From a virus, in the IMG/VR virus record IMGVR_UViG_3300045988_108820, positions 32,529 to 96,528 of that record: a stretch of DNA of 64,000 bases; one strand, 5' to 3'. Positions 2,393-61,723 of the stretch are shown here, piece after piece (the stretch's first letter is position 1; each line of letters begins with the position of its first letter). Under the pieces are notes generated by a model. It ran no database searches, was not told the origin of the DNA, and saw only the letters and a program-made list of their open reading frames with translations. Made by a program: the position numbers and the translations under genes.

Positions 2393-2395
2393 ATA

Positions 2396-43700: not shown

Positions 43701-46700
43701 AACAATCAGAGGATAATAATAAAAGAGCTTTAGAGGAGATGTCCCAAAATGCTAAAACTCTCCAAGAGGCTGAAAATACTTGGCAAGATATTAATTCTAA
43801 GCTTGATATGGTTGAGAAGGATAGAGGTTCCAAAATATCTTCTAATGTTAGAAGTAGACTACTTGAAAGAGCGGCACTTGATGGTTTCTTATCAGAAAGG
43901 TTAGATGCTCTGGAGGATAAAATTTCAGGTAATAGAATTAACACTTCTACTGAATCAACTGCTGAGACCTGGGGTACTAAGGAAGCTATTAAGGAACAAG
44001 TTCTATCTATGGAAAGAACTGAGAGGGATCTTAATAAGGATATAATTGTTGCAAAGAATAGATTAGATAATGCCACTACTAAGTTAAATGAGTATAAAAA
44101 GACTCATGATATTGAGAACTTAGATGATATAGCTACTACAGAGTACATAGGTTTACTAAATAATGTTGAAGCTGCCAAACTACAGTATGAATATACTACT
44201 AATTCTATGGATAAGCTCAAATCTAGGCAAGAAAAGATGAAAGCTATGAGTAAAGAGGAATCATCAAGAGTTTTATCTAAGAATGAAATACTGGCATTGC
44301 CCTCAGAAGCTAGAGCTAGAATGCTTAATGATTTGAATAGAAGTAATTATTCAAAGGAGCAACTTGAACAAATAGATGCTCTTAAGAATGAACTAACTCT
44401 AAAGGATCCATCATTACTACAATCTATACAAGATCAAGCTAGGCTCTTAAAGCAGAAAAATGCTAATGCTAGTGCCTATGAAATGATGTTAGAGAATCCA
44501 GAGGCAGCTTATACAGAATTTGAAGCTCAAGATGGTGTAGATGCTACTATATCTAGAGATTTATTCTTTAGAAGGTATAGTGAGAGCATTAATAATGTGA
44601 TAAGAAAATTGAGTAGTCTGAGTAATATAAAAGATATAAGTCAAGATGATATAAGGGAAGCAATATATAAAAATCTTAGAGTCTTACATCCCAAGATACT
44701 TGATTACTTAGACACAACTCTACCCAATGAAAAAGGTTTAGAATTTATTCCTTTATATAGCAATGAGATAGTAAAGGCTAAAGAATGGTCTAATATGCTT
44801 ACAGATATAAGTAAGGCTGTTGACCAAATGAACTTTGACGATTCAACTAAGAAAGTATTCAGTGACAATATAGGTAATCTTATTGATAAAGCTTCTACAA
44901 GAAAGCAAGCTATGGATATTTTAGAGCAAGTTAGTAACTCTACTGATGTTTCAAACTCAGATCAAGCTAACTTTAGGAAGTTACTGAATATAATCAATGG
45001 TGTTGAAGAACAAAGAAATGCTACTACTACAGAGACTAAAGAAGAAAAAAAAGCTAGACAGGAATCTCAAGAGACTCAAGCAAAGCAAGAGGAAAAGAGA
45101 GTAAAGGATGCTGAAGATAAAGCACAAGAAGCTATTGAAGTAACAGAAAAAGAAGCATCAAATGATAAAAATGCTCAAGAAGCTTATCAAGAAACAGAAA
45201 AAGAGAAATCCAATGAACAAAATGCTCAAGAGACTTACACTGAAACTAAACAAGAGAGAAGAAATCAAGAAGAAGCTAATAAGCAATTAAATACTTATGA
45301 GCAGACTGACGAAGATATAGCTAGAGATAAAGCTATAGAAGAACAAAGAAAAGAGGGTGTGGACTTTTCATCAGGAACTATAGACTTTGAGAGTCCTGAT
45401 TGGGAAAAACAAGTAGAACAAGCAGAGGCAGAAGGACATAAAATAGAAGAAGGATTTGTTAGTAAAGATACTACTGATGTTACTGATCAAGGAAATAGAG
45501 AGTCTATGCAACCTAGTGAAGTTTTAGCAGGAAATTATTTTCATAGATATGATGTAGATGCTCTAATAGAAGATAAAAAAGAGGTAGTTAGCTATGGTAG
45601 AAAGGGAGATATATTAGATAGAATATTAAAGTGGTTTGAAAATGCAGGAATCAAACTTCAGGAGATAGTAGATACTGAAGTGGGAGACATTATGAAAACT
45701 AAGCCTGAAGTACATCTACTATATGTAAATCCTAAAACTACTGCTACTGATGATGCTTGCTTTAGTGACACCGCTATGTTAGCAGTAGAATATACTGACA
45801 AAATATCTAAAATACATAATAATGATAGGGGGGGAGTAATTACTGCTAATGGTAAGCAATATCTAATAATAGGTACTCTAGGATTCAATAATAGAGAGCA
45901 ACAAAGCAATTATGTAAGTGTGCATAATCCAGCAAAAGGCTCAAGACTTAAATATTTTACAGCTAATCCTAATGAACGATTCTATATCCTTCCAACTGCT
46001 CATACCGAGATAGCTGAGATGACATCAGGAAGAATAACAAGACAATTAGAGAGTGATTCAGAGGTAAAAATTAGACCTGTTACAGAACTCTTATCTGAAC
46101 CTAATAGAAATCCTAAGGGATTAAAACTCCAAGATCTTAAGTGGGGTATAATGTTTGAAGATGGTTTACATTATGCAAATGTTTCTCCTAGAAATACTGT
46201 GTACCCTCCTAGAGATACCCTAAGTAACTTAGGTGCTGTATTTTTACTAATTGAAACTGCTAATGGTAATTATATACCAGTAGCAATAAGATCTACAATG
46301 CTCTCTGATTTACAAGATGGTACATTAAAGACTCAATTAAATAATCTATTTAATGAATTAAGTTCTACTAAATATTCAGATAGATTAGGTGCTATTAATC
46401 AACTTGTAAAATTACTTAATATAAATGAGAAGGGAGATAATATACTCATAGGAATGGATGATAAAGCAACTGTTAGTACAGTTAAGAATGGTACTGTATT
46501 AAGGACATTCAATTTGAAAGATGCTAACTTTAGTAGAATGGACTTAATTAATGCTATTTTTGAGCTTAATCCTAGAGTTAATATTACTTTATCTACTCTA
46601 AGTGATCCTGTACAGTTAAAAATGTATGCAGAAGCAGGTGCTTTGAACACTGATATAGCTAAATTAGGAACATCCAATGCAAGTTATACAGTGTACTCAA

Positions 46701-48487
46701 TGGATGCTAATGGTAATCCAATTAAGACTAAGCCAATAGAGAATAGAGATCCAAGTACAGAAGCTAATAGTGACTTAAACAAAGCTGACTATAAGAAGAA
46801 ACACTCTGTATATTATAGAGGTTCTCAATATAGAGAGAAGAATGGAAAGTGGTATAATACTAATTGGAAAGAAGTAACAGATCCTATATTACTTAGTCAA
46901 ATTAAATGGACTAGCTATATTAGAGTAAATGATTTGACTCCTAATTTAGTTGGTAATGATATGTTTGGTAATAAGAATAATGAATATTACATTATTAATT
47001 CTAATCCTACAAATGCAAAAGTGATTAAAGTACTTAGTAATGGTATTGTAGCTGAACTTAACATAAATGATTCTAGAGTAATAATAGAGAAAGTACAAAA
47101 TAGAGATATTCAAGCAACTAGAGAAAAAGCAGCTAAAGAAGAGAAAGAAAGACTTATGCATATTGAAAACTCTATGGACTATGATAATGCAGAAGCGGCT
47201 GGTGAGGGTGAAGATGTTACTAAGGTTAATGAGATTAGTGGAGCTAATTTAACTGAGGAACAAATTATTGCACAAGGTAATGGGGATTTCCAACTTGACT
47301 CTAAACCTCAACCAACAGATACTGAGCTTAAGGCACAAGCTATGGTAGATAGAATAACCTCTGATTCTCATGACATCATTCTAGATGAAAAGAGAGGTGT
47401 ATATGTAGATTCCACAGGCAAAGAAAGAGCTAGAGTTACATCAGTAATTCAAGCTACTGAAGGTACTGAGAGATTTGACCCAAATAGTCCTTGGATTACT
47501 CCTTCTACTAATGTGGGAACAGGAATGGATAACTTTGTAAGAGACTTCTTTGCTAGTAAATTGGGAAGTTTAGATAGCCTTCAGGAGAGGTATCCTAATG
47601 CCACAACTGCTCAACTACAAGCCTTTGAGAAACAGCTCCAAGAGTTCAAGGCTAAGCTTGATAAAGCTGGTTTAACAGTAGTTCCAAGGGATGTTACTGT
47701 CACTGGGGAAGTTGAAGTTACAGATACTAATGGTAAGAAATATAAATTACCTGTAGCAGGAACTCTAGACTTGCTTGCCTATGACAAAGATGGTAACTTC
47801 TATATCTTTGATATGAAGACAAATCATAGTACTCCTAATGCTAAAAAAGCTGCAAAGTGGAACAAACAGTTATCTTTATATAAGCAGTTCTTAGAAGAAA
47901 AGTATGGTGTTAGTGTAAAAGAGACTTCTATAATTCCAATAGAAGTGAAGTACCCAGCTCCTAAAGGATGGAGAAATGGAAAAACTGTATATAGAGCAGA
48001 TGAAAAAACTAATCAACTCTATTATCAGACAGAGGATAATTCTGGAGCATTAACCTCTAGTACTCCATATAGAGATGCTAAACCAATCTTACACTCTAAC
48101 ATACCAATCTCAACTAGTCCTGTAAAGATAGAGTATAGTTTACTAACTGATTCTGAGAAAGCATTATTATCTCCTGTGGTAGATGGAACATTTAATTCAT
48201 CTACAGGTACTACTAACATTGAGAATAAAAATAAGAACAAAGACATTAATAAGACAGGTGACATTTCACTAGCTGAATTACAAGCTAGTACAAATGCTAA
48301 ACCTACTAATGTAAGTTCTATGCTTAAAAATAGAAACTATAGTAAAAAGGTAAGAGGAATACTAAAAGAGAAAGGTTTTAATGGTAAAATGTCTGAGGTA
48401 GAAGCTTGGTTAAAAGAGCATAATATGCCTATAAGTAATATAAAAGACATAGATTCTTGGATTGATATGTTACAAAACTGTAGATAA
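40769..48487 (+). CDS. giant tail / ejected protein (2572 aa) with C-terminal PD-(D/E)xK nuclease domain
   Basis: A single uninterrupted frame. It has an N-terminal GLKGLKGLRGLEGL repeat, hydrophobic Ala/Gly-rich segments, a central E/K/Q-rich repeat tract and a C-terminal nuclease motif set (see sub-feature). Confidence 0.7.
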   Translation: MFTEILRGLKGLKGLRGLEGLSQQERDAWRRVNASKLEGKSAQYEDRLYANQQFVKKFGMDAFNSFNRDQRDYIYKDTIVNELYTDLYSPYTDKVGTDGKYIVDPNKGMGSEAEFKKYYAMDADSKLELIRSGWKPTPQIESELKKERDMKLAAINNSNAWVGAPSYAQGGVTASFIFREPIHEELSRSENNKILEGIYARDLKKREDELQPEIDDYYLNTIGKLSDSEVKSQFMKALTPSDTNIGNSQLLAFFHDGKNVEDEVKNFSIDDMRMYLAKFKVLNDRLGAGAAYTALDNYAKEYISDHQGNLTYAGLLAKDIGISVLSYTADKVNSIRQLFNTGKGKSVVWIDNKGNVVAPDQVKTAKNGDKYYINDDGEVTAIKQTKMSVTDLDYLGKDAEGNTRSDFLNNQFWADAEQYGTLDSDEIKQYKKLGASPYKVVYKPGDDSDLLYETIKMTSFAIADAASMLIPGYGETVGAAMQTTKAASLLSKAISTLGKGIYYTSKLAKAVQPTISATAIGHAYGRGVFGESLAQNMQQLEEYAYTFAQKNFHDNYYSNKQFKDQVDKDVQTEFNKLKNIQKAELNTSEGNKEIANQGLTDEALMEKAKQIVHSTYIDRGVKDIQNSDDYFDMVGKASESASDAAMTAAITDGAKYMLVNNFGYRKFLFNTAADRAASSARRLARNLSEKESRRLLFKSLIDGNKLKTIGKITASQAWGGAWTNFTDEMQSWGGKQINQDRFSSYLSGFYNGQASDDIYGAIDAVTSYFNGAMASLAKGTTWKAGFVGATGSLTSFAPNVASITTTIGTKRGREAWRKASLGERANMIFNNGVLNEYYGKKQGESEIKRYVDVVNKLLDEQDNFSILKSAVALDRASIDVSNQEDKNAITFLKAVNAISLLHQFQSDSGIKDQSSSRIKRWLKNKFGEGENTLGAVASQSTILTKALSEIEDLVNGNLSEESAKSYLSEYYAKNPTVEQSEDNNKRALEEMSQNAKTLQEAENTWQDINSKLDMVEKDRGSKISSNVRSRLLERAALDGFLSERLDALEDKISGNRINTSTESTAETWGTKEAIKEQVLSMERTERDLNKDIIVAKNRLDNATTKLNEYKKTHDIENLDDIATTEYIGLLNNVEAAKLQYEYTTNSMDKLKSRQEKMKAMSKEESSRVLSKNEILALPSEARARMLNDLNRSNYSKEQLEQIDALKNELTLKDPSLLQSIQDQARLLKQKNANASAYEMMLENPEAAYTEFEAQDGVDATISRDLFFRRYSESINNVIRKLSSLSNIKDISQDDIREAIYKNLRVLHPKILDYLDTTLPNEKGLEFIPLYSNEIVKAKEWSNMLTDISKAVDQMNFDDSTKKVFSDNIGNLIDKASTRKQAMDILEQVSNSTDVSNSDQANFRKLLNIINGVEEQRNATTTETKEEKKARQESQETQAKQEEKRVKDAEDKAQEAIEVTEKEASNDKNAQEAYQETEKEKSNEQNAQETYTETKQERRNQEEANKQLNTYEQTDEDIARDKAIEEQRKEGVDFSSGTIDFESPDWEKQVEQAEAEGHKIEEGFVSKDTTDVTDQGNRESMQPSEVLAGNYFHRYDVDALIEDKKEVVSYGRKGDILDRILKWFENAGIKLQEIVDTEVGDIMKTKPEVHLLYVNPKTTATDDACFSDTAMLAVEYTDKISKIHNNDRGGVITANGKQYLIIGTLGFNNREQQSNYVSVHNPAKGSRLKYFTANPNERFYILPTAHTEIAEMTSGRITRQLESDSEVKIRPVTELLSEPNRNPKGLKLQDLKWGIMFEDGLHYANVSPRNTVYPPRDTLSNLGAVFLLIETANGNYIPVAIRSTMLSDLQDGTLKTQLNNLFNELSSTKYSDRLGAINQLVKLLNINEKGDNILIGMDDKATVSTVKNGTVLRTFNLKDANFSRMDLINAIFELNPRVNITLSTLSDPVQLKMYAEAGALNTDIAKLGTSNASYTVYSMDANGNPIKTKPIENRDPSTEANSDLNKADYKKKHSVYYRGSQYREKNGKWYNTNWKEVTDPILLSQIKWTSYIRVNDLTPNLVGNDMFGNKNNEYYIINSNPTNAKVIKVLSNGIVAELNINDSRVIIEKVQNRDIQATREKAAKEEKERLMHIENSMDYDNAEAAGEGEDVTKVNEISGANLTEEQIIAQGNGDFQLDSKPQPTDTELKAQAMVDRITSDSHDIILDEKRGVYVDSTGKERARVTSVIQATEGTERFDPNSPWITPSTNVGTGMDNFVRDFFASKLGSLDSLQERYPNATTAQLQAFEKQLQEFKAKLDKAGLTVVPRDVTVTGEVEVTDTNGKKYKLPVAGTLDLLAYDKDGNFYIFDMKTNHSTPNAKKAAKWNKQLSLYKQFLEEKYGVSVKETSIIPIEVKYPAPKGWRNGKTVYRADEKTNQLYYQTEDNSGALTSSTPYRDAKPILHSNIPISTSPVKIEYSLLTDSEKALLSPVVDGTFNSSTGTTNIENKNKNKDINKTGDISLAELQASTNAKPTNVSSMLKNRNYSKKVRGILKEKGFNGKMSEVEAWLKEHNMPISNIKDIDSWIDMLQNCR
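47351..47968 (+). other. PD-(D/E)xK (RecB/Cas4-like) nuclease domain within the 2572-aa protein
   Basis: Ordered motifs: RVTSVIQ (res 2222-), GTGMDNFVRDFF, GTLDLLAYD (D2334), IFDMKT (D2348-x-K2350) and QLSLYKQF (Q2367-xxx-Y2371). Confidence 0.6.
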
Positions 48488-48529: not shown

Positions 48530-51500
48530 TTACTTTTGTAAATTGTTCTTTTCAAACACTTGGAATACACCATTATCAGTATCCATTTCATTAAGTTGTT
48601 CAATTTGTCCGTAAAATGGAATTAAATACTTTTGAATGTTTCTAAAGTATTTATTTTCCCCCTTATGCTTACCAGACTTAATTGTGTCATTAATATCTCC
48701 AATACCAGCAAATGGGTATAAAAAGGAATTAACTACATTAGATGCAGCTATAGGACTGTTTATTAGAGTATTCATTTCCATAGGAATACCCCATGGAGTT
48801 GAACCATTTATATCTGTAATAGCTCTCTTTGTTTGATATATCCACATCCTTGTCCAAAATTCTTTCTTATGGTCATCAGGTTCACCGAGAGCAAATGATA
48901 ATGTAAGAAGACTAGATAATACAAGTATTTCAGATAGTGCTCTTCTACAATTAGCTTTTTGCATAGGATTCATCTCATTCCAATGCAACATTGATTCTCT
49001 TTGAAACCTAAATATATCCCCAGCCATAGCATAAGCAAACTTAGAAGCTGTGTTATAATATCCCTCTCTATTTTCTCCAAGAGTAGCATCATAATGAGAA
49101 CTCCTAAATCTTCTAGAGTAGTGTTCAACCATCCATTGCCTTAAATTCATTATAAATCTACCAGCCATGTGTTGATGAATTAAACCTTTGTCTTCTTCAT
49201 TCATAGCACCATGGGTAGTTTGATTTACATATCTAATTCTTTTTCTAATCTTCTCTAAAAAGGCATCATCAATAGGAACTTCTTGACCATTATCATCAGT
49301 ATATGTAGCATTTTTATCAATTATTAGTTCAGAATTACCATCTACCTTATTACCTACAGAGAATACATCATAAAGGGATTTAGTTTTTCCATTTATTTTA
49401 ATCTTAGTATTATGTAATACAGCATACATATTTACAAAGTGAATTAAGTGTTCACCTGCCCCATAACCTATGAATGAGAAGTTCTTTCCCAAAAGATGTC
49501 TTAGTGGTCCTCTGTAATATCTTTGATGCTGTAATTCTCCAAAATTTTCATTTAATGGATCAAATATTTGTGCTAACAATACTGATTTACTATTAGTATT
49601 ATTAGTCATAAAGTCCATTATTCTTCCTACAGAGCCTTTAATATTATCACCAAAAACTTTCTTATGTGCCCATGCATAATCAATAGGATTATAAAACTCC
49701 ATAGCCCCAGACTCTACTAACATTTGAAGTTCACCTACTAGGTAGTTAGATATAGCTCCTTTAACATTAACAGCCAAACTCTTTAAAGAAGTATATGCAA
49801 GTAGATTCTTCAGTAACATGTGATATTTTCCAGGGTTTTTAATATTAACACCATATATAAATTTATCAACAAATCCATCAACAATACCAATAGTATTAGA
49901 ATTACTTGCAAAAGCTCTTAATTGTTTATAAACCCTAATACCTGTATCTTCTACCATATCTAGACTTTTATAGTTCCTTCCAGCAGCTACTTCTTGGTCT
50001 TTAATAAAATCAGCCATAAATTCAACAGTGTCTTTAATATTATTCATAGCCTCATAGTTTATTGCAGTTCCTGCTAAGTGTTGTATAGCACTAGAGAAAT
50101 CTTTCAGTAGTTCTCCTTTATCTTTAATCTTATTGATATAGAATATAGGTATTTGTCTAAATGGAGTATTATCTAATGCTCCACTAACTATGTTATATTC
50201 TTCTCCATTTACTATACCATTATTTGCATATCTATCATCATCTTCTCTTATAGTAGTAAAGTCTTTAAGTTTTGTTCTAATAGCTTTTATTAAATCTCTA
50301 AGACTTCCCTTCTTAACAGCAGCTTTCATAGCATCCACAAAGGATCTCCTAATTTGAGGAGGTACAAATTGTCTTTGAGCATAATTAGGTAATAAGGTTC
50401 CTAATTCTCCTTTTATTTGCATCATTGTTTCATAATACTCCTGTTGCTCACTAGTTAATTTAGGAAATGCTTTTCTATATGTGGAATTAGGAACTCTCTC
50501 AGTTCTGCCACTTACTAAATCTACAACTCTATCCTCTGTATTAGCTTCTTCCCAATTTTTTATAGCTTCATCTACAGATAGACCTCTAGTTCCTTGCCCT
50601 ATTAATCCTTTTCTAAAATTAGCTCTAGCTTTATAATAAGCAGTCCAATCAATATCACTTATGATATAACCATTAGGCTCATACATAAAGTCACTCTTAA
50701 AACCTGCTTTTCTGAGTTTATGTTCTGCTCTTCTTATTCTAAGAGATATAGCATTCATCTTAGCATCCCTAGAAGATTGAGCATCTCTTATAATGTTACC
50801 CATAGTAGCAATTAATGGGTTAGAAACTCTTCCAATACTATATAAATAGTCATAGATAGTAGAGTCTTTTTCAGCCATTTCAACTATATTAACTACAGAC
50901 ATGCCATTAGAAAGTTTATCTCCTAAATATTCAGTAGCTATAGTAGTCATAGTATTTAGTCTTAACTCCCTTAGAGTTTTATCATGTTTATCAAAGAATT
51001 CTACTAGTTTAGTAGCTTGATCTTTTATAATTTGTTTATCAGTATCACTAAGTCTTTCATCTGAGATAATACTATCAATATTAGACAATGATGTAAGAAT
51101 GCTTTTATAACCATCAGTAATAGATTTAACCTGCATTAGTGACTTAGCTATAGCAGAAGCTCTCTCTAGATTACTTCCAGATTGTGGAGTATTCTGGAGG
51201 ATTTTTTCCACTTCTTGTATTTGTGTAGATGCTTCACTAAGAAATCCTAGAATACCAACATAGTATCTATTACTATTAATTTCCTTCATAAGTGTATGCA
51301 AAGACTGTTCCAATCTAGTAGTTTCAGGGGTTATTCCCTGCTCTGCTTTCATCTTTTTGAGCTGTCTTTGTAATGTTATAGCAGCTTCTGATGCTGCTTG
51401 AGATAAACTCCTTATATTATTTCCAACTAGTACTACTTCATTAAAGTCTAGATTATATTTCTTATTTAGTGCTTTTATTGTATCTTCTATCTTACCTTCT

Positions 51501-52375
51501 TCTGAATTTCCAATTGCCTGTTCTACACTCTCTATTTGTTGTGAAACTGCATTAATATCAAGTCCATTATACTTTTTACAATTATTTAATGTAGCATCTA
51601 TTAAGGCTTTTTGAGAAGCTGTTACTCCACCAACTCTATAAGAGTCATATATTTTTTGAGCAACTTCTTCCAATGTGCCAAACATTTGCTTAAGTCTTTG
51701 TACTTGACTACTTGATTCATTAAATACTAGAAGGTCTTTAATCTCTTTTCTGTCAAGAAACTTATTATCAGTAAATTGTACATTATGCATTTGAAGTATA
51801 GCATTTCTAGCATTAGCTGCATTATATACTGATTTATTAACATCAGCAGATTCAATGTCTATACCAACATTATTTAAAGATTGTTTTAATATATCCCATT
51901 GTTGTAGTTGCTTTTCAACTTGAGCACTTCTTAATTGTGTTCTTGAGTTTCTCACATCTACTACAATATTAAATTTATCTCCTCCAGAATAGACAGCAGC
52001 TACAGTACCTTTACTAGAATTATTATGACGCTGTGCTATATCAAGGGCATCTTTAGCATTAGTATAATCAATAGGATTTCCTGAGAAATCAGTAGCTCCT
52101 ATTGTTCTTGATACTTCACTTACCTTTCCTTCTGTAGATTCCCTAATAAATGACATTACATCTAGGTACTTTTCTACATCTGCAATCTTATGTTCACCTT
52201 GGTCATTTCTAGAATAACCTAGGCTATCCATCTGTGCAGCTACCCCCGATTGGAGGTAGACTGCATAGATGTAATTAGCCTTTGGTCTATTCCCTGTGAC
52301 TTTAAGTAACTCCTTATAGAGTTTACTAGGTTTACCCTGTATTGTAGGGTATAATTCACATGAATTTTTAGCCAT
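48530..52375 (-). CDS. giant virion/ejected protein co-transcribed with the RNAP-type gene (1281 aa)
   Basis: Its ATG immediately follows the TAA of the 3115-aa gene with no spacer. A single uninterrupted frame. No catalytic motif recognised. Confidence 0.65.
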   Translation of the reverse strand: MAKNSCELYPTIQGKPSKLYKELLKVTGNRPKANYIYAVYLQSGVAAQMDSLGYSRNDQGEHKIADVEKYLDVMSFIRESTEGKVSEVSRTIGATDFSGNPIDYTNAKDALDIAQRHNNSSKGTVAAVYSGGDKFNIVVDVRNSRTQLRSAQVEKQLQQWDILKQSLNNVGIDIESADVNKSVYNAANARNAILQMHNVQFTDNKFLDRKEIKDLLVFNESSSQVQRLKQMFGTLEEVAQKIYDSYRVGGVTASQKALIDATLNNCKKYNGLDINAVSQQIESVEQAIGNSEEGKIEDTIKALNKKYNLDFNEVVLVGNNIRSLSQAASEAAITLQRQLKKMKAEQGITPETTRLEQSLHTLMKEINSNRYYVGILGFLSEASTQIQEVEKILQNTPQSGSNLERASAIAKSLMQVKSITDGYKSILTSLSNIDSIISDERLSDTDKQIIKDQATKLVEFFDKHDKTLRELRLNTMTTIATEYLGDKLSNGMSVVNIVEMAEKDSTIYDYLYSIGRVSNPLIATMGNIIRDAQSSRDAKMNAISLRIRRAEHKLRKAGFKSDFMYEPNGYIISDIDWTAYYKARANFRKGLIGQGTRGLSVDEAIKNWEEANTEDRVVDLVSGRTERVPNSTYRKAFPKLTSEQQEYYETMMQIKGELGTLLPNYAQRQFVPPQIRRSFVDAMKAAVKKGSLRDLIKAIRTKLKDFTTIREDDDRYANNGIVNGEEYNIVSGALDNTPFRQIPIFYINKIKDKGELLKDFSSAIQHLAGTAINYEAMNNIKDTVEFMADFIKDQEVAAGRNYKSLDMVEDTGIRVYKQLRAFASNSNTIGIVDGFVDKFIYGVNIKNPGKYHMLLKNLLAYTSLKSLAVNVKGAISNYLVGELQMLVESGAMEFYNPIDYAWAHKKVFGDNIKGSVGRIMDFMTNNTNSKSVLLAQIFDPLNENFGELQHQRYYRGPLRHLLGKNFSFIGYGAGEHLIHFVNMYAVLHNTKIKINGKTKSLYDVFSVGNKVDGNSELIIDKNATYTDDNGQEVPIDDAFLEKIRKRIRYVNQTTHGAMNEEDKGLIHQHMAGRFIMNLRQWMVEHYSRRFRSSHYDATLGENREGYYNTASKFAYAMAGDIFRFQRESMLHWNEMNPMQKANCRRALSEILVLSSLLTLSFALGEPDDHKKEFWTRMWIYQTKRAITDINGSTPWGIPMEMNTLINSPIAASNVVNSFLYPFAGIGDINDTIKSGKHKGENKYFRNIQKYLIPFYGQIEQLNEMDTDNGVFQVFEKNNLQK

Positions 52376-55300
52376 TTAGCAAAGTTTTTTATATTCTTCT
52401 TCTATAGTTTTTTCATCAAATTTAATTCCAAGAACTTCAAGTCTAGATTTCATGAACTTCTTAACTTGTGATTCAATAGCCTTCTTAAACTCATTGTCCA
52501 TATTTTTATAATTTTGGATAGTACTTTCTGCATCTGCAAGTGTTTTACCCTTCGTCATATATATTTGGTGTAATAAGTCTATTTGCTCTTGTTCACTATT
52601 AGTAGATTCATCTAACTTAGTTTCTCTATCCACATCTGGATTATTAATCTCTGATTTTGTATTATCTTCCAAGGATACTGAAGGAATCTCAAGAGGTTTC
52701 TCAATTCCATCAATGCTAATCTCTAGATAGTCTTTGTTACTTCCAAGAGGATTAATTTCTTTGTACTCAATAGATTCATCTTTTGATAGAACTTGCTGAT
52801 ATAATTTATCAACATTATCTACTCTCATTTTAAAATATTGAGTTTTCTGAAGATCTTTAACATCACTCTCTTTATATACTTCAAAGTTACCATTCTCAAG
52901 CTTTCTCATAACAAGATTTTTCTTTCTAGGAACAAGCTTGTTATTGTCCCAGTTATTTCTAATAAACTGGTCAAGGACTATCTCAGGTGTGCTACTTGGG
53001 AGTACTCTAAATGTATCAACATAACTACTAAGTCTCTCTTTCACATATACAGGAACTAAACTCATAAAGGTTTTAGGAGAAAATCCTATTCCAGCTCTAA
53101 AGAAACAGTACTTAAAGAGTTTTTCAGATAATTCTGGATTCACTCTATGAAGGTCAATCCAAGCACTACTTAGTCTTTCTTTTTGTAGAATATCAAGACC
53201 AGTAATATCAACCTGAAGAGTGGCTCTACCTCCTTTATCAGTTCCATATTTTATAGACTGAATGAGAAGATTATTTTTATACTGTTCTTTGTAGTTTTTC
53301 TCCATAAACTCCTTAGGGAACTCTGATATAGTTTTACCTAAATCATTTGATTTTACTACATTACCTGCTACAACAAGATAGGACTGATAGAAGTCACTTA
53401 AACTACTAAGAATTTTTCTATCACCGAGAATAACATCACCTATTGGATTTTCACTAGCATAAGTGAGGATATTTCTAAATCCTGTACTATTAGCTGGCAT
53501 ACTACTAAATAAGCCTTGTGCTATTCCTAATGTTTTTCTAAATTGATTTAGAATAGGATGTGCAAGGAAGATATCATTAATACTAATTTCCTCTCCATCT
53601 GAGCCAAGAATATTACTCTCAGAAGAAAGCTTTTCCATTTTATGCTCGGTGATTAAATTATCAATAATCAATGGACCCACTGCACTACTTATTGAGTTAA
53701 ATCTAGTAGCAAATGTAGGCATCCTCATAGCGTCAGCAAGTCTTTGAAAGTTTCTAAATGACTTAAGAACTTTGTATTCAATTCTTGAATCCCTTGATTT
53801 TACACCTTTAATTAATTGCTCTCTAGTAAGTTCTTCTTCATTAAGTAAACTATTCTCATCAATATTTAGATCTTTCTCTATTTTCTTTATCCTATTTTCA
53901 ACTACTTTACTTAAAGAAGTAAATCCTGTGATATTTTCACTACTAAATTGATTAAGAACATCTGATATAACTCTTTGAGATAAGAAGAGAGCAGCATCAT
54001 CAAAAGGCATTCCAAGTCTTACAAGAGTATTAAGAATATTAGCTGTATTACTATTAATATTCATCAAGTTAAGTACAGGATCTTTAACAGCATCAGCTGC
54101 ACTAGCAACTAAACTACCAAGTACTTTACCAACTGATTGTCCACTATTATCAAGTCTAACATCAATAGGCATATTACCTCCAAAAGTCATATCTGCTACA
54201 GTAAATGGTCTAGTAAGGTTACATGCATTATCTACATTCATCATATATCCTTCATTCTCTATTACTGCATGAGCAGTTCTATTAACTGCAAAGATACCAA
54301 TAAGAGAACCAGCAGCACTATTTTGTTTGTAGAATTGTATATGAGTATCAATAAACATAAGATTCTTATCTTTACTACTTAAATCCTTGAGTTCATCAAT
54401 AGACATCTTACTTAATTCATCATAGCTTTTGTCAGTAGTTCTAAGAGCAGTTACAAGATAACCCATTCTCTTTTGTGGGTCAAAGCCACCTGGATTTAGC
54501 ATTTCTGCACAACTAGTTTCATGTGTTAATACCTCATAAGTCATATCAACAATCTTATTATTTCTATAAGTTCTTCCTTCTGTAGGTTTATTAACAGTAA
54601 AAGCATTTTGTAAATATAACTTAAGTAACTTACTATAAGAATTACTAGGAATTGACATGAATCCTTCAGCTGTCTTTTGATTAACTAGAGAGGCTCTATC
54701 AAATGGGTCTTCAAGAAATTGTCTAACCAAATCATTAAGTTTGCTTTTAACATTATAACTTAGTTTCCCTTTTTGAGACTCAACTAGAGAATCATATAAT
54801 ATTTTATGAAGAGCAGATTTAGTAATTTTATTTTTAGAAATACTGTAATCTTTTCTCATAAGATACTCCTTATCAACATCAAAGTCTGAACCTGTGAGTA
54901 GTGTAATATCACTAGGTAACATAATACCATCACCAGCTTCTCTAGGTAAGAAACCCACAATCTTCAAAGGAGCCATACTATATTTAGCTTCAGTAGGAAT
55001 TCTATAGCCAATCATCTTTAATAAATCAGGGTCAAGAGCTTCCAATGCTTCTATGCTAATGTTACCATTCTTATCAGCGAATTGACTGAATAGATTGTTA
55101 GCATATATAGGAGCAAATACCTCAAAGTAAGCAATACCTCCTTGATTTTCTTTTATATAATCTTTATAGGACATTGTACCTTCAGAAACCTTTAATCCTT
55201 TGTATTTAGCATTAAATTTATCAGTTTGAGAAAGTTCTTTCTTTATAGGATTTTTTTCATATTCTGCTCTTGTTTTTAATAAACCTCCATTCTTGTCTTT

Positions 55301-58300
55301 AAATCTAATATTAAGTTCTCTAGAAGTACCAAAGTTAGTAACCTGTACAACAGGACCACCAGCTATTTCTTGTTTATTAACTCTATTCTTTATAACAGAG
55401 TTGACTAATTGTTCAACTCTTTTACTCTGAATAGGATCTCCAAGAGGTATTCTAAATCTACCATTTTCATCAACCGAACAAGCTTGTAAGAGATCTATAC
55501 CATATCTAGGACTGGATAATATTTCTCTTTGTAATATCTTACTAAGAGCTATATTTCTATCTTTTGTATTAGTACTTTGAAGACCTAGAGCACTCTCTAA
55601 ACCACTTATACTATCTTCAATATTATCTGCAATAGTTTGTTCATACTCAGACTTAAATTCATCAGCAGATATTTTTTTACCTTCAACTTCATAGGTTGCA
55701 TCATTTCCAAAGCTATCTTTTGTAGCAAGTTCTGATACTACAATATATCTCAATTGGGAGCCATGAACTTGCTCATGATTCTTAAAGTGCTCAGGCACTT
55801 CTTGTTGTAAACAATAGTCTTCAAAAGGTAGCTCTTGAACATAAGTTTGATTATATTTACCTGTTTTGGTATCTATAGTCACATCCTCAAGTTTTCCAGT
55901 CTCTTGGTTAGTTCTTTGGATTGTTTTAGGAGCTGTCTCATATATACAAGCCTCCATAACAGCTTTGGCTTTAGCTTCTCCATTGACATCATTAATATAT
56001 TTATTAAGATTAATTCTGCCCATTAAGCCAGACTTTACAGTTGACTCAAACTGAACAGTATCAATACCATCTGTCTTATAGTTACCATCTTCATCATAGT
56101 GACTTTCTTCCATTACTTCATAGATTGCTCTAAGTAGGTTTGGTCTACCAGTGTTCTCATTTTGAAGAATAGCATCAGCCATTATAAGAAGATATTCAGA
56201 GTTTTTATTCTGTACAGGTATTTTAAGCTTATCAAGGGGAGCATTAGGTACACCAGAAGACTTTTCTATTTGACTATAAACAAAGGGCTTTAGTGGTTGA
56301 AACGCTACACTTAGATCACTATAATTGTAATCTCCCTTTCTAAGTTTTTGATATATTTCTTCTGCCTTTTTACTCCATTTACCAAAAATAAATGCTTTCT
56401 TTCTATATGATGTTGGAGAAGAATATCCTTGAGCATCTGCTACATTTATTTTTCTAAATGCACCATCTTTACCTACAAGAGAGTCTTTTAATACTCTATA
56501 ACCATCTTTTTCAGCTTCTGGAGCTTCAGCTATCTTTCTATCAAAAACAATTGATACATTGTCAATGATATTAGATACAAAGTCATCCCAGTCTTTAAGA
56601 TAGAAGGTTCTTTCCTTTCCATCAGAGACTTTACTACCTTCATAGTCTGTAGCATCTACATTACCTCTTATACCTGGAGCATGGATTTGTGCTAATCTCT
56701 TTTGTAAATCTTCTGCATCCTTATAATAGGCAATATCAGTTACAGTTAATTCCATTATGTTCATAGCTGCAAAAGTATCATTCCAAACAAAGTTTTCAAG
56801 ATTAGATTTAATCTCTTCCTCTGTAGTACCAATACCTGAGATTTTCTTAGCTCCTTCCATAAGACCAGAGTTAATCCAATTCTCTACAATGGATTTAGCT
56901 CTAGTGTCTAAAGTATCAAAGATAGCTTTATTAGCAAGTTCATATAACTTAGCTTCATCTACTTCTTTACCATTGATTTTATTGTTTATAAGTTTACCTA
57001 ATTCACTATTCTTTTTATCTCCAGTAAGATAATCATTCATAAAGTCAAGGAAGCAGAACTTTTTACCATTTTTATCAAAATTCTTTATGAATCTTGGACC
57101 TTTACTATCGAGGTTTCTCATCAGTACGGTTTGGATTCTACTTAACTCTTGATTAAATATGTCCATCATACCATCTGTAATAGTTTCTCTATAGTTAATA
57201 CCTCTTTCACTATAAAACCTTATGAATTCAGAAGATGGCTTATTAGATAACATAGGCACCCTAAACCAAGCAGGTACTCTTGATTGTTTATCATTTGCAC
57301 CTTCTGAAAAATACTCTGTAAGTAATGAGAGTGCATACTCCATATCACTCATATTCTTCATATAATTGTGCTTATTGAAACTGAGTTGTACTTTATGTTT
57401 AAAAACACTTCTAGCTTTACTATCAGTAGCTAAAGTTCTAAGCCAACTGTTTCTCCAACCTCTTTCAATATCTGTGCCTTCATGAAACCATGGTTGGTTT
57501 GCATACTCCTCGGTCAGAAAGTCATCAAAAGCCTGTCCCTCTTGACTAAATTTTTGCATTAACTTAGACATATAAGAAGGAGTTACATAACTTTGATACA
57601 TTTTACCATTATCATAAAAGGCAGAAATTGCAATATCTTCTAAGTGTTCTGTGATAGGCTTTAAGAACTCTCTCATATTACCATTGATACTATCTTTAGC
57701 CTTAAACTTGAAAGGTTCATAAGAAGCATTATCAAGATTATTTTCAAAAGATCTTATCATGTATCCTAAAGCACTATACATCTTTTTAAAAGTTTCACTC
57801 GTAAGATTACTCTTTACCATATCAGGAGTTACATAATAACCAAATAAGCTTGAAATATAATCTAAAGTATTAGCAACTTCATCTTTATCAACTTCTTTAG
57901 ATAAATCATATCCTGTATGCCTAAACTTTTCAAGACTGTCATAAGCAGATTTAAGTTCTCCAAATGATTTTTTATTTATACCCTCAGTAGTAAATAATGG
58001 ATGTTCTCCTATTTTATACTGAGTTGTGACTTGCGTCATGGCTTCACTAAGAGCAGGATTTTCATTTACTGAAATACTTTTATATTTTCCATCTTCTTCA
58101 ATTACTGTTGAATATGATTGAAATGGCTTAAAGAATGTTCCGTAGAATTGACTCTGAAAATCAGTCTCTTTACCAGAAGTATCAGATAATCTATCAATAA
58201 GTTGTTTAACCCAAGGATTATCTTTCTGCTTTCCTTGTAATTTAGTTATTGCACTAGCCAAACTTAATGAGCCTTGTGTCCATCTAAGTATAGAATTAGT

Positions 58301-61300
58301 TGCTTCTCTTACATTTATTCTTTCATTGATACCAAACTCTGATTGTACATTGTTCCCATCTTTATCAAGAATATAACATTTAAGTAAGGCTTTCCTAACC
58401 AATTGAGACATAGTTTCAAGTATATCTTGACATCTAGATTCTAATTGCCAATGCTCTTGAAGATTACCTTCAATTTCTTCCACACTTGCCTGGTCATTAG
58501 ATTCATTAAAGTTATCTGCATCACCCACAAGATCTTCATTGACTTCATTAACTTTCCCATCAGGTGTGGATACTATACTAAAATCTTCAAAGTTTAAGAA
58601 TGAACTTTGTGCAAGTAACATTACAGCTTGCCAATTATCAGTAATAGCAGTAGCTTTATCTATTGTATCAAAGTTGTCAAAGTCATTATGTTCAGGAGAA
58701 AACTTCTGTCTGCACATTTCAATTATATTGTCAACTCCAATAGTTCTAACTACATCTGCTCTAGTCATAGAGGCAAAATCTTTGTCAGTACCATCCTTAT
58801 TTTTAAACCTATCACCATAGATAGTTTTAGCTGCCTCTGGATTTTCTTGCAATTCAGTAATATGGTCTGAAATCCAATATACAGCTTGTTCAGCTATATG
58901 TCTTACTTCTGTTGCAGAAAGGAGACTATCTCCTAAAAGGTTGTCTATTTGTTGCATCTTATCTTGTTGTTTTAATGTATATAAATCTTGTTCTTTTTCT
59001 TTTCTATCTATCTGTGAAGTTTCTTCTTGAGTACCATCTTCAGTATTAGCTACTTGAACATTAGTAGTAGTTTGTAGATTATTATCCTGAGACTCTTGCT
59101 TATTTAATCTAATACCTTTCTCTAGTTCTATTCTATGAATAGCATCTAAAGTAGCTCTCTTCTCTACTTCTATTTTGTTAGGTGAAAGCCAATCTATTGC
59201 ATAAGGAACTAAACTACCATAAGTATCTCTTATATCTCCTTCATAATAGTCTTTACCACTATCCTCCCAATACTTATGACTTAATTCATGATATGTTACT
59301 AAATTTTTAGCATCTTCATCAGTTTGAATTATTTCTCTTAGTCTTTCTTCTGTATATCCTTCCTTTGCTAATTCTTTAAAGACTACCCTTTTTTGTTCTG
59401 ATGTGCTACTAGGGACTTCACCTTTAATATATTTAAAAACATCTTCTTTACTAAGATTCCTAGCAACTACTATATTACCACTCCTAGTAAATCCAAGTTT
59501 TCCATTTAATATTTTCTCATCAGTAGTTTCATTTATAGGAGCTTGAAATTTAGAGTACTCTTCAAAAGTTCCATCACTCTTAAGATAATCACTACTACCT
59601 TTGGAGTAATCATAAATACCCCCTCTTAAGTTTTTATTAGCAGAATTAAAATACTCTTGTGAAATAGAAATAATTTCCTCTAAAGCTGAATCTTTTATAT
59701 CTATTCCTTGAGATTTAAACATTTTATTAAATAAATTAGTAAGATAATTTATAAATCTCTTAAAAGCATTTTCTTTCTTACCTAACTTTATTTTACTTAA
59801 TTCTACTTGAAAGGCTCTATCTGTTAAAGCTACAGCTACAAATTCTTTAGCATTAGTTAATCCATACCACTCAGTTCCCTTTAATTGTTCTTCACATTGT
59901 AGATATAGATTCCATACATTATTAGAAAATTCTGTTTGTACTTTATTAAAGTTCTTTATTTTAGACCAAGAAGGGTGATAATTTAAAATCTCAGCAGTAA
60001 CAGCATGAATTAATTCGTGAGTTAATACCTTCATAATACCTCCCTTTACATTAGCTTTATCATCTGTCATTAGATAATCTAATAATAAAGCAGGATTAAT
60101 TCTTATTGTAGCTGTTCTAAAATTATCTTGTTTTCTACTAGCTATACCATCTAAATTAGAGTCTATAAGTATATTTATAGGAATATTATTATTTCTTAAT
60201 ATCTCAACTACTTGTTTAAATAATTGGTGATATGGATTAGTAGGTTTTACTTTACTTAAAAACTCATCAATTAAAGAGTTATTTAGAGTAATACCTTCCT
60301 GCTTTAATATAGCTATAGCTCTCTCTCCCTCTATAGCATTCTCAATAGAGTCCCCTGATATATAGTCTTCCCTATTAAGCAATTCTAACTCCTTATTAAT
60401 TTCTTCTTGTCTTGAGAAAGCTTGCTTTTTATGCCATTTATCTATTAAATTATCAGCTAACTTAGGGTTTTTTAATTCTGATAAAACATTATCTAGTTCT
60501 TTTAAATTGTGAATTATATTACCCTTATCATCAACTTTTATTCTAGTATTATAGCTTTTATTAAATCCAGCTGCCTTTCTTCTTAATGCTCCTACTTTTC
60601 TTTCTAATGGAAGATTTTTAAAGTCTTCTTTAGCTATATCCATTAGACTTAGAACATTACTAAGATTTTCTCTCTCTTTCTCTATAGACTTTATTCTATC
60701 ATCTATTTTACTCTGTAATTGTGTCTTAGATTCTCCCTTATAAGAAATTCCAAGAGCTGATTTTTCTTCATTATAATAATCTATTCTATCATCAGTTCTG
60801 GAGAAGGTTCCTATATTACTCTCAGCTGATTTAATTTGATTTGGGGTTGGAACAACTATTTCTTCATATCTCCCCTCAGCACCTGAATATAACACACCAT
60901 CATATTCTTCCGTATTACCTATTCCCCTATTAAAGTTTTCAGCTAATTCCACATTTTTAATAGCTTCTTTCATACTTATATTAGGATCTGTCCCTGCTCT
61001 TAATGGTTTTTTTATATTTACAAATAATTTCATTATATTACCATATTGAGCAGCTTTATTCTCTACGGAAGATAAATATAATCCTTTACCATAGTATCCA
61101 TCATCTGTGTTTTTACCAAACATTTTAGTATCTAGTATATTCCACTTACTATTGGTACCATGATAAACAACTAAAGGTTCACCATTTTCATCTACTACTT
61201 TAGAAGCATTCTCTGGGTCATTTTCCCAATCACCAAACCAACCTTTAAATTCTTTAGTTCTAACCTGAGCATATTGTCTTTCATCAAGATTAGACTTTTT

Positions 61301-61723
61301 ACCGTTAGGAGCTAATAAATTACCTTCTGAGTCTCTTTTAGCATTAGATAAAATATACTTATATTCTGACTCAAATGTGGGATTTCCTATCATTAAATCA
61401 TAAGTTCCATTTTTTCTCTCTACAATAGAAATACTATCCTTTCCAAATATTTTAACTGCATTGTTATACTCCTCATTAGCTAAGATTAGTGTGGGAAAGT
61501 TAATAGGAGATGAGTATTGCTTCTCCCATACTTCAATCATATTATGGTCTCCAGTAAAAGACTTTGGCTTGAGTAAATTATTTACTTCTTCTGCACTTGG
61601 AAATCTATCACTATTCTCAGAATTTTGTATCTTATGAATAATTAGTTCTAGAGCAGATGAGGATATATCTACCTCATCAAGTAAAGTTTTAAACTCTCTT
61701 GAATTAATATTAACACAACTCAT
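52376..61723 (-). CDS. giant virion-packaged RNA-polymerase-type protein (3115 aa) with N-terminal ART-like and HExxH modules
   Basis: DFDVD at residues 2280-2284 (LLTGSDFDVDKEY) matches the DxDxD metal-binding motif of two-barrel RNAPs, as reported for crAss-like virion RNAPs. The N-terminal effector-like domains are listed as sub-features. Confidence 0.7.
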   Translation of the reverse strand: MSCVNINSREFKTLLDEVDISSSALELIIHKIQNSENSDRFPSAEEVNNLLKPKSFTGDHNMIEVWEKQYSSPINFPTLILANEEYNNAVKIFGKDSISIVERKNGTYDLMIGNPTFESEYKYILSNAKRDSEGNLLAPNGKKSNLDERQYAQVRTKEFKGWFGDWENDPENASKVVDENGEPLVVYHGTNSKWNILDTKMFGKNTDDGYYGKGLYLSSVENKAAQYGNIMKLFVNIKKPLRAGTDPNISMKEAIKNVELAENFNRGIGNTEEYDGVLYSGAEGRYEEIVVPTPNQIKSAESNIGTFSRTDDRIDYYNEEKSALGISYKGESKTQLQSKIDDRIKSIEKERENLSNVLSLMDIAKEDFKNLPLERKVGALRRKAAGFNKSYNTRIKVDDKGNIIHNLKELDNVLSELKNPKLADNLIDKWHKKQAFSRQEEINKELELLNREDYISGDSIENAIEGERAIAILKQEGITLNNSLIDEFLSKVKPTNPYHQLFKQVVEILRNNNIPINILIDSNLDGIASRKQDNFRTATIRINPALLLDYLMTDDKANVKGGIMKVLTHELIHAVTAEILNYHPSWSKIKNFNKVQTEFSNNVWNLYLQCEEQLKGTEWYGLTNAKEFVAVALTDRAFQVELSKIKLGKKENAFKRFINYLTNLFNKMFKSQGIDIKDSALEEIISISQEYFNSANKNLRGGIYDYSKGSSDYLKSDGTFEEYSKFQAPINETTDEKILNGKLGFTRSGNIVVARNLSKEDVFKYIKGEVPSSTSEQKRVVFKELAKEGYTEERLREIIQTDEDAKNLVTYHELSHKYWEDSGKDYYEGDIRDTYGSLVPYAIDWLSPNKIEVEKRATLDAIHRIELEKGIRLNKQESQDNNLQTTTNVQVANTEDGTQEETSQIDRKEKEQDLYTLKQQDKMQQIDNLLGDSLLSATEVRHIAEQAVYWISDHITELQENPEAAKTIYGDRFKNKDGTDKDFASMTRADVVRTIGVDNIIEMCRQKFSPEHNDFDNFDTIDKATAITDNWQAVMLLAQSSFLNFEDFSIVSTPDGKVNEVNEDLVGDADNFNESNDQASVEEIEGNLQEHWQLESRCQDILETMSQLVRKALLKCYILDKDGNNVQSEFGINERINVREATNSILRWTQGSLSLASAITKLQGKQKDNPWVKQLIDRLSDTSGKETDFQSQFYGTFFKPFQSYSTVIEEDGKYKSISVNENPALSEAMTQVTTQYKIGEHPLFTTEGINKKSFGELKSAYDSLEKFRHTGYDLSKEVDKDEVANTLDYISSLFGYYVTPDMVKSNLTSETFKKMYSALGYMIRSFENNLDNASYEPFKFKAKDSINGNMREFLKPITEHLEDIAISAFYDNGKMYQSYVTPSYMSKLMQKFSQEGQAFDDFLTEEYANQPWFHEGTDIERGWRNSWLRTLATDSKARSVFKHKVQLSFNKHNYMKNMSDMEYALSLLTEYFSEGANDKQSRVPAWFRVPMLSNKPSSEFIRFYSERGINYRETITDGMMDIFNQELSRIQTVLMRNLDSKGPRFIKNFDKNGKKFCFLDFMNDYLTGDKKNSELGKLINNKINGKEVDEAKLYELANKAIFDTLDTRAKSIVENWINSGLMEGAKKISGIGTTEEEIKSNLENFVWNDTFAAMNIMELTVTDIAYYKDAEDLQKRLAQIHAPGIRGNVDATDYEGSKVSDGKERTFYLKDWDDFVSNIIDNVSIVFDRKIAEAPEAEKDGYRVLKDSLVGKDGAFRKINVADAQGYSSPTSYRKKAFIFGKWSKKAEEIYQKLRKGDYNYSDLSVAFQPLKPFVYSQIEKSSGVPNAPLDKLKIPVQNKNSEYLLIMADAILQNENTGRPNLLRAIYEVMEESHYDEDGNYKTDGIDTVQFESTVKSGLMGRINLNKYINDVNGEAKAKAVMEACIYETAPKTIQRTNQETGKLEDVTIDTKTGKYNQTYVQELPFEDYCLQQEVPEHFKNHEQVHGSQLRYIVVSELATKDSFGNDATYEVEGKKISADEFKSEYEQTIADNIEDSISGLESALGLQSTNTKDRNIALSKILQREILSSPRYGIDLLQACSVDENGRFRIPLGDPIQSKRVEQLVNSVIKNRVNKQEIAGGPVVQVTNFGTSRELNIRFKDKNGGLLKTRAEYEKNPIKKELSQTDKFNAKYKGLKVSEGTMSYKDYIKENQGGIAYFEVFAPIYANNLFSQFADKNGNISIEALEALDPDLLKMIGYRIPTEAKYSMAPLKIVGFLPREAGDGIMLPSDITLLTGSDFDVDKEYLMRKDYSISKNKITKSALHKILYDSLVESQKGKLSYNVKSKLNDLVRQFLEDPFDRASLVNQKTAEGFMSIPSNSYSKLLKLYLQNAFTVNKPTEGRTYRNNKIVDMTYEVLTHETSCAEMLNPGGFDPQKRMGYLVTALRTTDKSYDELSKMSIDELKDLSSKDKNLMFIDTHIQFYKQNSAAGSLIGIFAVNRTAHAVIENEGYMMNVDNACNLTRPFTVADMTFGGNMPIDVRLDNSGQSVGKVLGSLVASAADAVKDPVLNLMNINSNTANILNTLVRLGMPFDDAALFLSQRVISDVLNQFSSENITGFTSLSKVVENRIKKIEKDLNIDENSLLNEEELTREQLIKGVKSRDSRIEYKVLKSFRNFQRLADAMRMPTFATRFNSISSAVGPLIIDNLITEHKMEKLSSESNILGSDGEEISINDIFLAHPILNQFRKTLGIAQGLFSSMPANSTGFRNILTYASENPIGDVILGDRKILSSLSDFYQSYLVVAGNVVKSNDLGKTISEFPKEFMEKNYKEQYKNNLLIQSIKYGTDKGGRATLQVDITGLDILQKERLSSAWIDLHRVNPELSEKLFKYCFFRAGIGFSPKTFMSLVPVYVKERLSSYVDTFRVLPSSTPEIVLDQFIRNNWDNNKLVPRKKNLVMRKLENGNFEVYKESDVKDLQKTQYFKMRVDNVDKLYQQVLSKDESIEYKEINPLGSNKDYLEISIDGIEKPLEIPSVSLEDNTKSEINNPDVDRETKLDESTNSEQEQIDLLHQIYMTKGKTLADAESTIQNYKNMDNEFKKAIESQVKKFMKSRLEVLGIKFDEKTIEEEYKKLC
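54872..54886 (-). other. DFDVD candidate catalytic Mg-binding motif of the two-barrel RNAP
   Basis: The minus strand reads GAC TTT GAT GTT GAT (D2280-F-D-V-D2284). Confidence 0.6.
59276..59290 (-). other. second HExxH motif (HELSH, residues 812-816)
   Basis: The minus strand reads CAT GAA TTA AGT CAT in the context LVTYHELSHKYWED. This may be an ArdC/SprT-like Zn-peptidase module, unverified. Confidence 0.35.
59774..60166 (-). other. zincin-like metallopeptidase module (HELIH, residues 569-573)
   Basis: VLTHELIHAVTAEIL, with the motif nucleotides at 60005-60019. Domain borders are approximate. Confidence 0.45.
60809..61351 (-). other. ADP-ribosyltransferase-like domain of the polyvalent-protein type (residues about 125-305)
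   Basis: LLAPNGKKSNLDERQYAQVRTKEFKGWFGDWE...SKVVDENGEPLVVYHGT...YGKGLYLSS...YEEIVVP matches the recurrent lead-in and H..Y..E pattern I recall for ART-like domains of phage and conjugative-element polyvalent proteins. Confidence 0.5.

Follow-up and report, generated by a model that had tools for sequence, protein, structure and literature searches.

No viruses of the human gut are more abundant than the crAss-like phages, whose takeover of Bacteroidales cells is still poorly understood. In other phages, polyvalent proteins that combine metallopeptidase-like, ADP-ribosyltransferase (ART) and other domains have been predicted to enter the cell with the DNA; N4-like virion RNA polymerases (vRNAPs) fused to a metallopeptidase and an ART, such as CBX87992.1 of Roseovarius Plymouth podovirus 1, have been predicted to be co-injected, and the prototype of the ART-PolyVal family is itself fused to an N4-like vRNAP (Iyer et al. 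2017, PMC5512222). Among crAss-like phages, gp47, gp49 and gp50 of PhicrAss001 have been detected in virions and termed RNA polymerase (RNAP)-associated cargo proteins (Bayfield et al.), gp65-67 of phage phi14:2 are present in virions by mass spectrometry, and gp65 has been described as bearing a zincin-like protease domain; the orthologous RNAPs and their associated proteins are thought to be ejected, partly unfolded, ahead of the DNA. Here we describe a 64,000-nucleotide stretch of the virus record IMGVR_UViG_3300045988_108820 (positions 32,529 to 96,528; hereafter the window), in which a single uninterrupted open reading frame (ORF) of 3115 codons on the minus strand encodes a crAss-type virion RNAP. 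We favour, as the more probable account, the reading that the first ~900 residues of this protein are a head of the 'polyvalent-protein' type built from three exchangeable modules, namely an ART-PolyVal of PARP-like fold with an intact H188-Y216-D275 site and two HExxH-bearing domains. As in polyvalent proteins, several unrelated enzyme-type domains, including the metallopeptidase and ART hubs, are joined in one large polypeptide that is encoded with virion genes.

The sequence-only reading of the window had proposed that an ART-like module and two HExxH motifs are fused to the virion RNAP. All of the motifs that it quoted are present in the giant protein at the residues given for them (LLAPNGKKSNL, 136-146; QYAQVRTKEFKGWFGDWE, 150-167; VVDENGEPLVVYHGT, 176-190; YGKGLYLSS, 211-219; YEEIVVP, 286-292; and HELIH and HELSH, Table 1), and the span that it covered, 59276-61351, corresponds precisely to residues 125-816. 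The 3115 residues contain three HExxH motifs, compared with 0.03 expected from the protein's own composition. The fusion to the RNAP was borne out as well. Specifically, the C-terminal ~2200 amino acids are the crAss-type virion RNAP: a sequence search of the PDB returned one protein, phi14:2 gp66; the match to chain A of 6VR4 ('DNA-dependent RNA polymerase'; E=3.1e-22) spans residues 2228-2946 and aligns the catalytic motif TGSDFDVDKEY with TGSDFDIDKMY of gp66. A tblastn search with the catalytic segment found 110 phage records, of which those listed were crassvirus genomes, many with an RNAP annotation, and the order of the 3115-aa, 1281-aa and convergent 2572-aa genes mirrors that of PhicrAss001 gp50-gp49-gp47. 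The nearest genome was that of cr116_1 (Steigviridae, Asinivirinae, Pamirivirus), with 87% nucleotide identity across the giant gene. A PHROGs search of the RNAP body and the neighbouring giants returned no family.

We found that residues 178-307 match ART-PolyVal (PF18760) over the full profile (1-140/140), with E=1.2e-21 and 78.4 bits against a gathering cut-off of 31.2, so that the ART-like domain of the sequence-only reading is upheld. A homologue search gave about 1500 proteins, nearly all of which carry PF18760, often in tandem arrays, while a direct PDB sequence search with the ART segment gave no match and an NCBIfam search of all three head modules gave nothing meaningful. The FK-x-WFGDW lead-in, which had been taken as a pattern of such domains, proved to be one: in a family of 110 domains, the lead-in LAPNGKxSNL..Q..VRT..FKxWFGDWE..SKVVDENGEP and the lead-out NQIK[LS]A...F...DIR[FY] are >85-95% conserved, and the window protein has LAPNGKxSNL...FKxWFGDWE...SKVVDENGEP and NQIKSA...F...DDRIDY at these places. 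An AF2 model of the module (pLDDT 82.7) contains six strands in the order expected for ARTs, and its lead-in has a pLDDT of 89-97, indicating that the lead-in is a structured N-terminal part of the ART domain beyond the Pfam model. The 50 top Foldseek matches of this model were almost all PARP-family catalytic domains (tankyrase 1/2, PARP1, ARTD13, PARP4 and PARP14), with probabilities of 0.7-0.99 and E values from 1.4e-3; together, model and matches have the character of the ART (PARP/diphtheria-toxin-like) fold.

The ART site of the window protein is intact, with the configuration H188-Y216-D275 (H-Y-D) and with D275 as the likely catalytic acid. H188, on a predicted strand at 186-190, is His in 107/110 family members; position 216 (strand 215-218) is aromatic in all 110 (Y78/F23/H5/W4); and D275, which directly precedes the strand at 276-281, is Asp in 94/110, followed by Gly at 276 in 98/110. 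In the family alignment made with a hidden Markov model (HMM), the eight complete ART modules of crassvirus-type giants have invariant H and D-G, with Y, W or F at the Tyr position. This agrees with the description of ART-PolyVal as having H in strand 1, Y in strand 2 and D in strand 5, related to Tox-ART-HYD2 (Iyer et al. 2017, PMC5512222). The sequence-only reading had expected an H-Y-E triad with its Glu in YEEIVVP. The model places H188 and Y216 suitably, but we prefer D275 to E288 as the acid: E288 lies in strand 6 and is Glu in only ~54/110 family members, and the family is described as H-Y-D. In four other crass ART modules for which the alignment is readable, the E288 position is E or Q. 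No R-S-E site or membership of the Alt/VIP2 family was found for the window ART, the site being H-Y-D and Pfam giving ART-PolyVal and, weakly, DUF3990 only.

Two further observations concern the flanks of this domain. Residues 34-85 of phi14:2 gp66 contain a remnant of the lead-in motif (KEEYDKLSSPEFIAKFGDWINDEVERNVNEDGEPLLIQ) with no ART core, recovered by the ART HMM (full E=2.4e-5) and also in the PDB search; this may be either what is left of a lost ART or a junction motif that has a role of its own. In addition, tandem ART-PolyVal proteins (P0013, P0014, P0017, P0041 and P0061 among them) have two or three domains separated by a near-invariant junction, ..NQIKLADGTNTTFD..NPDIRF..GG.LLAPNGKPSNLT.EQYKLVRTP.FK.WFGDWEND.., and such strongly conserved junctions could be sites of recombination or processing.

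The sequence-only reading had also taken both HExxH motifs to mark zincin peptidases, an assignment that held better for the first than for the second. Since a word-indexed homologue search with residues 331-900 gave only 7 close fragments, an exhaustive search of representatives was used instead, which, with local alignment, yielded 30 homologues of the HELIH domain. H569, E570, H573, Y620, E627, F628, F638 and L642 are invariant among them, and the combination of HExxH with a Glu (E627) 54 residues downstream in an E-x-x-A context is a gluzincin signature. An HMM of this family matched residues 205-354 of phi14:2 gp65 (HEIMH at 245) with E=1.9e-24, and the domain matched PHROG 2206 (E=1.2e-9). 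The profile also matched three solved proteins that are capsid-internal or act in ejection, namely 9sfn_G, an 'internal virion protein' (7.5e-9), 8vb2_A, the tetrameric ejection protein gp48 of PhiM1 (5.3e-8), and 23sg_S, gp10 (4.9e-7), all of which retain the HExxH and the downstream Glu; weaker matches were to anthrax lethal factor (0.004) and, in two members, to Pfam ATLF (2.3e-5). In Pfam, where the ART had passed its threshold, zincin matches were sub-threshold only, comprising Peptidase_M90, SprT-like and DUF3810 in this region of the window protein and SprT-like (7/17), Peptidase_M90 (5/17), M91 and M13 in family members, with none in NCBIfam. These comparisons support the placement of the first motif in a zincin-like domain, which has homologues in the crAss gp65 zincin and among ejectosome proteins.

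For the HELSH domain, H812, E813, H816 and E854 are present in 40/40 homologues, and R856, A857 and A861 in at least 93%; the motif is thus as invariant in its family (40/40) as HELIH is in its own (30/30). Its AF2 model (pLDDT 89.7) has three short strands and three helices, followed by an HExxH helix (802-819), a loop and a Glu helix (848-869, with E854). No Pfam or NCBIfam family was found for it, the best matches of its members being to weak zincins (M91, YgjP-like, M35 and M78), and neither a profile search of PDB sequences nor Foldseek against the PDB (best E=2) gave a match. Foldseek against BFVD recovered the cr116_1 orthologue and an 'RNA polymerase' of Podoviridae sp. ctBev14 (7e-5), with weak matches to IrrE-N-like (E 0.27 and 0.63; probability 0.92 and 0.69) and SprT-like proteins. 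The HELSH domain represents a distinct family with a gluzincin-like signature, and because no curated peptidase family and no solved fold was matched, we treat it as a putative peptidase.

Comparison with orthologues showed that the head is a mosaic, accessory region that evolves faster than the RNAP body. For example, the close orthologues P0001 and P0123 have the N-terminus of the window protein but entirely lack residues ~130-312, which comprise the ART, while P0002, P0003 and P0122 have a different N-terminus and additional modules. The added modules are an HEILH domain in P0003 and cpYpsA/SLOG (PF12694) in P0002, P0121 and P0122, and among representatives at 50% identity every combination of modules occurs, including a 6022-aa fusion (P0180). 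In cr85_1 and ctcc615, an HExxH followed by ART-PolyVal is found at the C-terminus of the gp47-like protein, and PhicrAss001 gp47 has an HEAFH motif near its C-terminus. ART-like segments at the termini of giant proteins are also present in cr271_1 of the Intestiviridae and in cr130_1, cr115_1, cr4_1 and cr10_1 of the Suoliviridae, where they are annotated as hypothetical, with an unrelated label (VOG1134/exonuclease in cr4_1) or not at all (cr10_1). The window ART is ~65% identical to the gp47-borne copy of cr85_1 and 92-97% identical to metagenomic copies, compared with 51% to cr116_1; being nearer to these than to its nearest genome relative, it implies exchange of the module. Against cr116_1, the head modules have 51-75% identity, with ratios of nonsynonymous to synonymous substitution rates (dN/dS) of 0.18-0.55, whereas the RNAP body has 88-92% identity and a dN/dS of ~0.09. 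Separately, scaffold_361 of ENA ERZ28656984, which carries P0008/P0009, is a mirror-image palindrome with the same three genes inverted on both arms, most likely an assembly artefact.

By analogy with the orthologues, we infer that the whole giant polypeptide would be packaged in the capsid and ejected into a Bacteroidales host ahead of or with the DNA. The RNAP part would then transcribe early genes, the ART may draw on host NAD+ to modify some macromolecule of the host, whether in takeover or against its defences, and one or both HExxH domains may either divide the giant protein into functional parts or cleave targets in the host. Several points weigh against this reading. The TM-scores of the Foldseek matches to the ART are modest, at 0.3-0.4, partly since the lead-in and a disordered tail were modelled together with the core. 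PhicrAss001 gp50 functions without any of the three head modules, so that the head is dispensable for RNAP function. Finally, the vRNAP of N4, which has a related HExxH domain, is reportedly packaged without processing, and its C-terminal domain has been described as autoinhibitory; such domains therefore need not act as proteases, which makes a non-proteolytic role a serious rival.

One alternative account concerns the target of the ART. This domain may not modify the host RNAP in the manner of T4 Alt; it might act instead on a nucleic acid or on some part of a defence system, simply use up NAD+, or work against NAD+-based immunity, an alternative that we regard as possible though doubtful. 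The window ART belongs to the H-Y-D (Tox-ART-HYD2-related) group and not to the R-S-E Alt/VIP2 clade, nucleic acids and nucleotides are among the known substrates of ARTs, and other nucleotide-centred modules (cpYpsA SLOG, PF12694) replace or accompany the ART in orthologous heads. Moreover, an accessory, fast-evolving module (dN/dS ~0.5) is as expected of a counter-defence weapon rather than of a core takeover function. However, protein modification is the commonest activity among PARP-like H-Y-E/D ARTs.

As to the HExxH domains, they may not be proteases but structural or regulatory parts of the ejected polymerase, serving as an encapsidation signal, in docking to the membrane or ejectosome, or in autoinhibition of the RNAP until release, with a metal site for stability or unrelated chemistry. 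In N4, the HExxH-bearing C1 subdomain is part of the C-terminal domain that binds and dampens the RNAP, and this region is needed for encapsidation; phi14:2 gp66, too, is packaged self-inhibited. Nevertheless, even distant homologues of each domain keep both His, the general-base Glu and the downstream Glu in its ExxA context without exception, as would be expected if these were active gluzincins and not degenerate structural relics, and we consider a purely non-proteolytic role rather unlikely.

A further possibility is that the head acts in the producing cell as part of a maturation polyprotein, from which the zincins would remove it before or during packaging, so that the RNAP body alone is injected and the ART works late. 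Drobysheva et al. suggested that fused giant proteins are 'likely cleaved into individual components', with possible activation of the RNAP by the zincin; P1 DdrB undergoes processing prior to packaging (Iyer et al. 2017, PMC5512222); and the headless gp50 of PhicrAss001 would also fit. On the other hand, ART-PolyVal and metallopeptidase-type domains are typical of proteins for which delivery together with the DNA is predicted, and the same ART is found at the C-terminus of another virion cargo protein in other crassviruses. In addition, Foldseek gave a weak similarity of the ART model to a solved chain of the cyanophage A4 pre-ejectosome (9k3a_B), by which such a domain would lie within a virion. 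We therefore think this alternative improbable. That the ART is an inactive passenger acquired by recombination, with no function in the window phage, is very improbable: although it is missing from close orthologues, has W or F at the aromatic site in several crass modules with a variable strand-6 Glu, and has a higher dN/dS than other parts of the protein, the copy in the window retains all three H-Y-D residues and is full length against the Pfam model, its dN/dS is still <1 (0.52 against a 91%-identical copy), and near-identical copies (92-97%) persist in independent metagenomes. A delivered head with probable enzymatic functions remains the reading that we favour.

The neighbouring genes (Table 1) are related to the other two cargo proteins. 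The 1281-aa protein matched phi14:2 gp65 over its C-terminal ~800 residues with E=8e-19 and contains no HExxH, and neither an HExxH nor an ART was found in the 2572-aa protein. Near its C-terminus, the latter has a match to a PD-(D/E)XK nuclease (Pfam PF12705, E=5e-5, 23.8 bits against a cut-off of 22) at the place where cr85_1 and ctcc615 have HExxH and ART-PolyVal, and the termini of the cargo proteins look like interchangeable effector slots. The sign of the GC skew changes from + to - at ~48 kb, where the + structural/cargo block meets the - RNAP block. Within the RNAP body, we considered HEQVH at 1983-1987 as a further peptidase site and rejected it; the motif is probably incidental because phi14:2 gp66 has no HExxH at the aligned position. 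HEQVH is kept in cr116_1.

Table 1. Features of the giant ORF and of the adjacent cargo genes in the window; residue n of the giant ORF corresponds to window position 61723-3(n-1).
Feature	Window position	Strand	Residues	Remarks
Giant ORF	52376..61723	-	1-3115	Effector-like head (residues 1-~900) and crAss-type virion RNAP; orthologue of PhicrAss001 gp50 and phi14:2 gp66
N-terminal segment	61352..61723	-	1-124	Starts with MSCVNINSREFK; conserved; common to many orthologous RNAP giants with or without ART
ART module	60788..61336	-	~130-312	Lead-in, ART-PolyVal core (Pfam 178-307) and lead-out
H188 codon	61160..61162	-	188	VVYHGT; predicted strand 1
Y216 codon	61076..61078	-	216	GKGLYLSS; predicted strand 2
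D275 codon	60899..60901	-	275	EYDGV; start of predicted strand 5
E288 codon	60860..60862	-	288	YEEIVVP; predicted strand 6
Linker or 'mid' region	60362..60787	-	313-454	Kept in close orthologues only; no family match
Segment containing HELIH	59549..60361	-
HELIH motif	60005..60019	-	569-573	Zincin-like domain
Segment containing HELSH	59039..59566	-
HELSH motif	59276..59290	-	812-816	Putative peptidase
RNAP body	52376..59023	-	~900-3115
DFDVD motif	54872..54886	-	2280-2284	Catalytic motif of the RNAP
HEQVH motif	55763..55777	-	1983-1987	Rejected as a peptidase site
1281-aa gene	48530..52375	-		Downstream of the giant ORF; RNAP-associated cargo, orthologous to phi14:2 gp65 and PhicrAss001 gp49 via C-terminal ~800 aa
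2572-aa gene	40769..48487	+		Convergent; at the position of PhicrAss001 gp47 (third 'RNAP-associated' cargo protein)
PD-(D/E)XK match	47618..47953	+	2284-2395 of the 2572-aa protein	PF12705

The finding is not categorically new: polyvalent proteins had been described as a concept, the crAss zincin was known, and the nearest relative bore an automated ART annotation. Yutin 2018 and Drobysheva 2020 had both noted the crAss zincin and giant fusions. The effector head on the RNAP is also neither unique nor unrecorded, its architecture being shared by cr116_1 and its N4-like theme having been described in 2017; a swappable head of this kind was predicted earlier for other phages but has not been studied in crAss-like phages. 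In the literature searched, with subscription papers lying outside it, we found no experimental study on the ART-PolyVal family and no paper linking crAss-like phages with ADP-ribosylation. If our reading is correct, the injected polymerase of some crAss-like lineages would be accompanied by what is probably an NAD+-dependent modifying enzyme and by two likely metallopeptidases, for which H188, D275, E570 and E813 are concrete catalytic residues to mutate.

Of the described proteins, the closest in architecture is that of cr116_1 (Pamirivirus faecium, NC_055882; gp051 and gp049, YP_010111550.1 / UniProt A0A7M1RZQ7), which UniProt names automatically 'ART-PolyVal-like domain-containing protein' and GenBank lists as VOG3903/hypothetical. 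Its ART differs from that of the window (51% identity) in having an insert of ~65 residues after the lead-in and W at the Tyr position, and its RNAP gene is split inside DFD|VD by an inserted LAGLIDADG-type gene, whereas the window gene is uninterrupted (DFDVDKEYLMRK). At this split (NC_055882 16524-17365), gp051 ends with ...TGSDFD-KSYVEIKMC and a stop, gp049 starts with M-VDKEYLMRK, and the 215-aa gene between them, with a LAGLIDADG-like motif (LIGLLIGDGTIS), is probably an intron-borne homing endonuclease. Cellulophaga phage phi14:2 provides gp66 (PDB 6VR4) and gp65, both virion proteins. The gp47-like cargo proteins of cr85_1 (Kahnovirus) and ctcc615 (Wotdevirus) have the same pair of module types as the window RNAP, in their case an HExxH domain followed by ART-PolyVal, but at the C-terminus of the gp47 orthologue and not on the RNAP; that of ctcc615 is annotated as 'putative RNAP associated protein fused to zincin protease'. 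Solved ejection proteins such as PhiM1 gp48, unlike the window protein, have neither polymerase nor ART, and a term search of the PhiM1 paper found no mention of an HExxH motif, peptidase or metallo-enzyme.

T4 Alt, a virion-packaged ADP-ribosyltransferase that is injected with the DNA and modifies the host RNAP, served as the functional model both for the sequence-only reading and for Iyer et al. It differs from the window protein in belonging to the R-S-E Alt/VIP2 clade and in standing alone, with no polymerase or peptidase fusion, and it has no Pfam sequence match in the window protein; with its H-Y-D site, the window ART may work like Alt but is not a member of the Alt family. The N4-like vRNAPs are parallel in another respect. 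Their polymerase is T7-like, whereas that of the window is a two-barrel RNAP, and the two folds are unrelated; the same head logic, with related metallopeptidase-like and ART modules, is thus found on polymerases of unrelated classes, suggesting that selection has strongly and convergently favoured the delivery of effectors along with the first enzyme of transcription.

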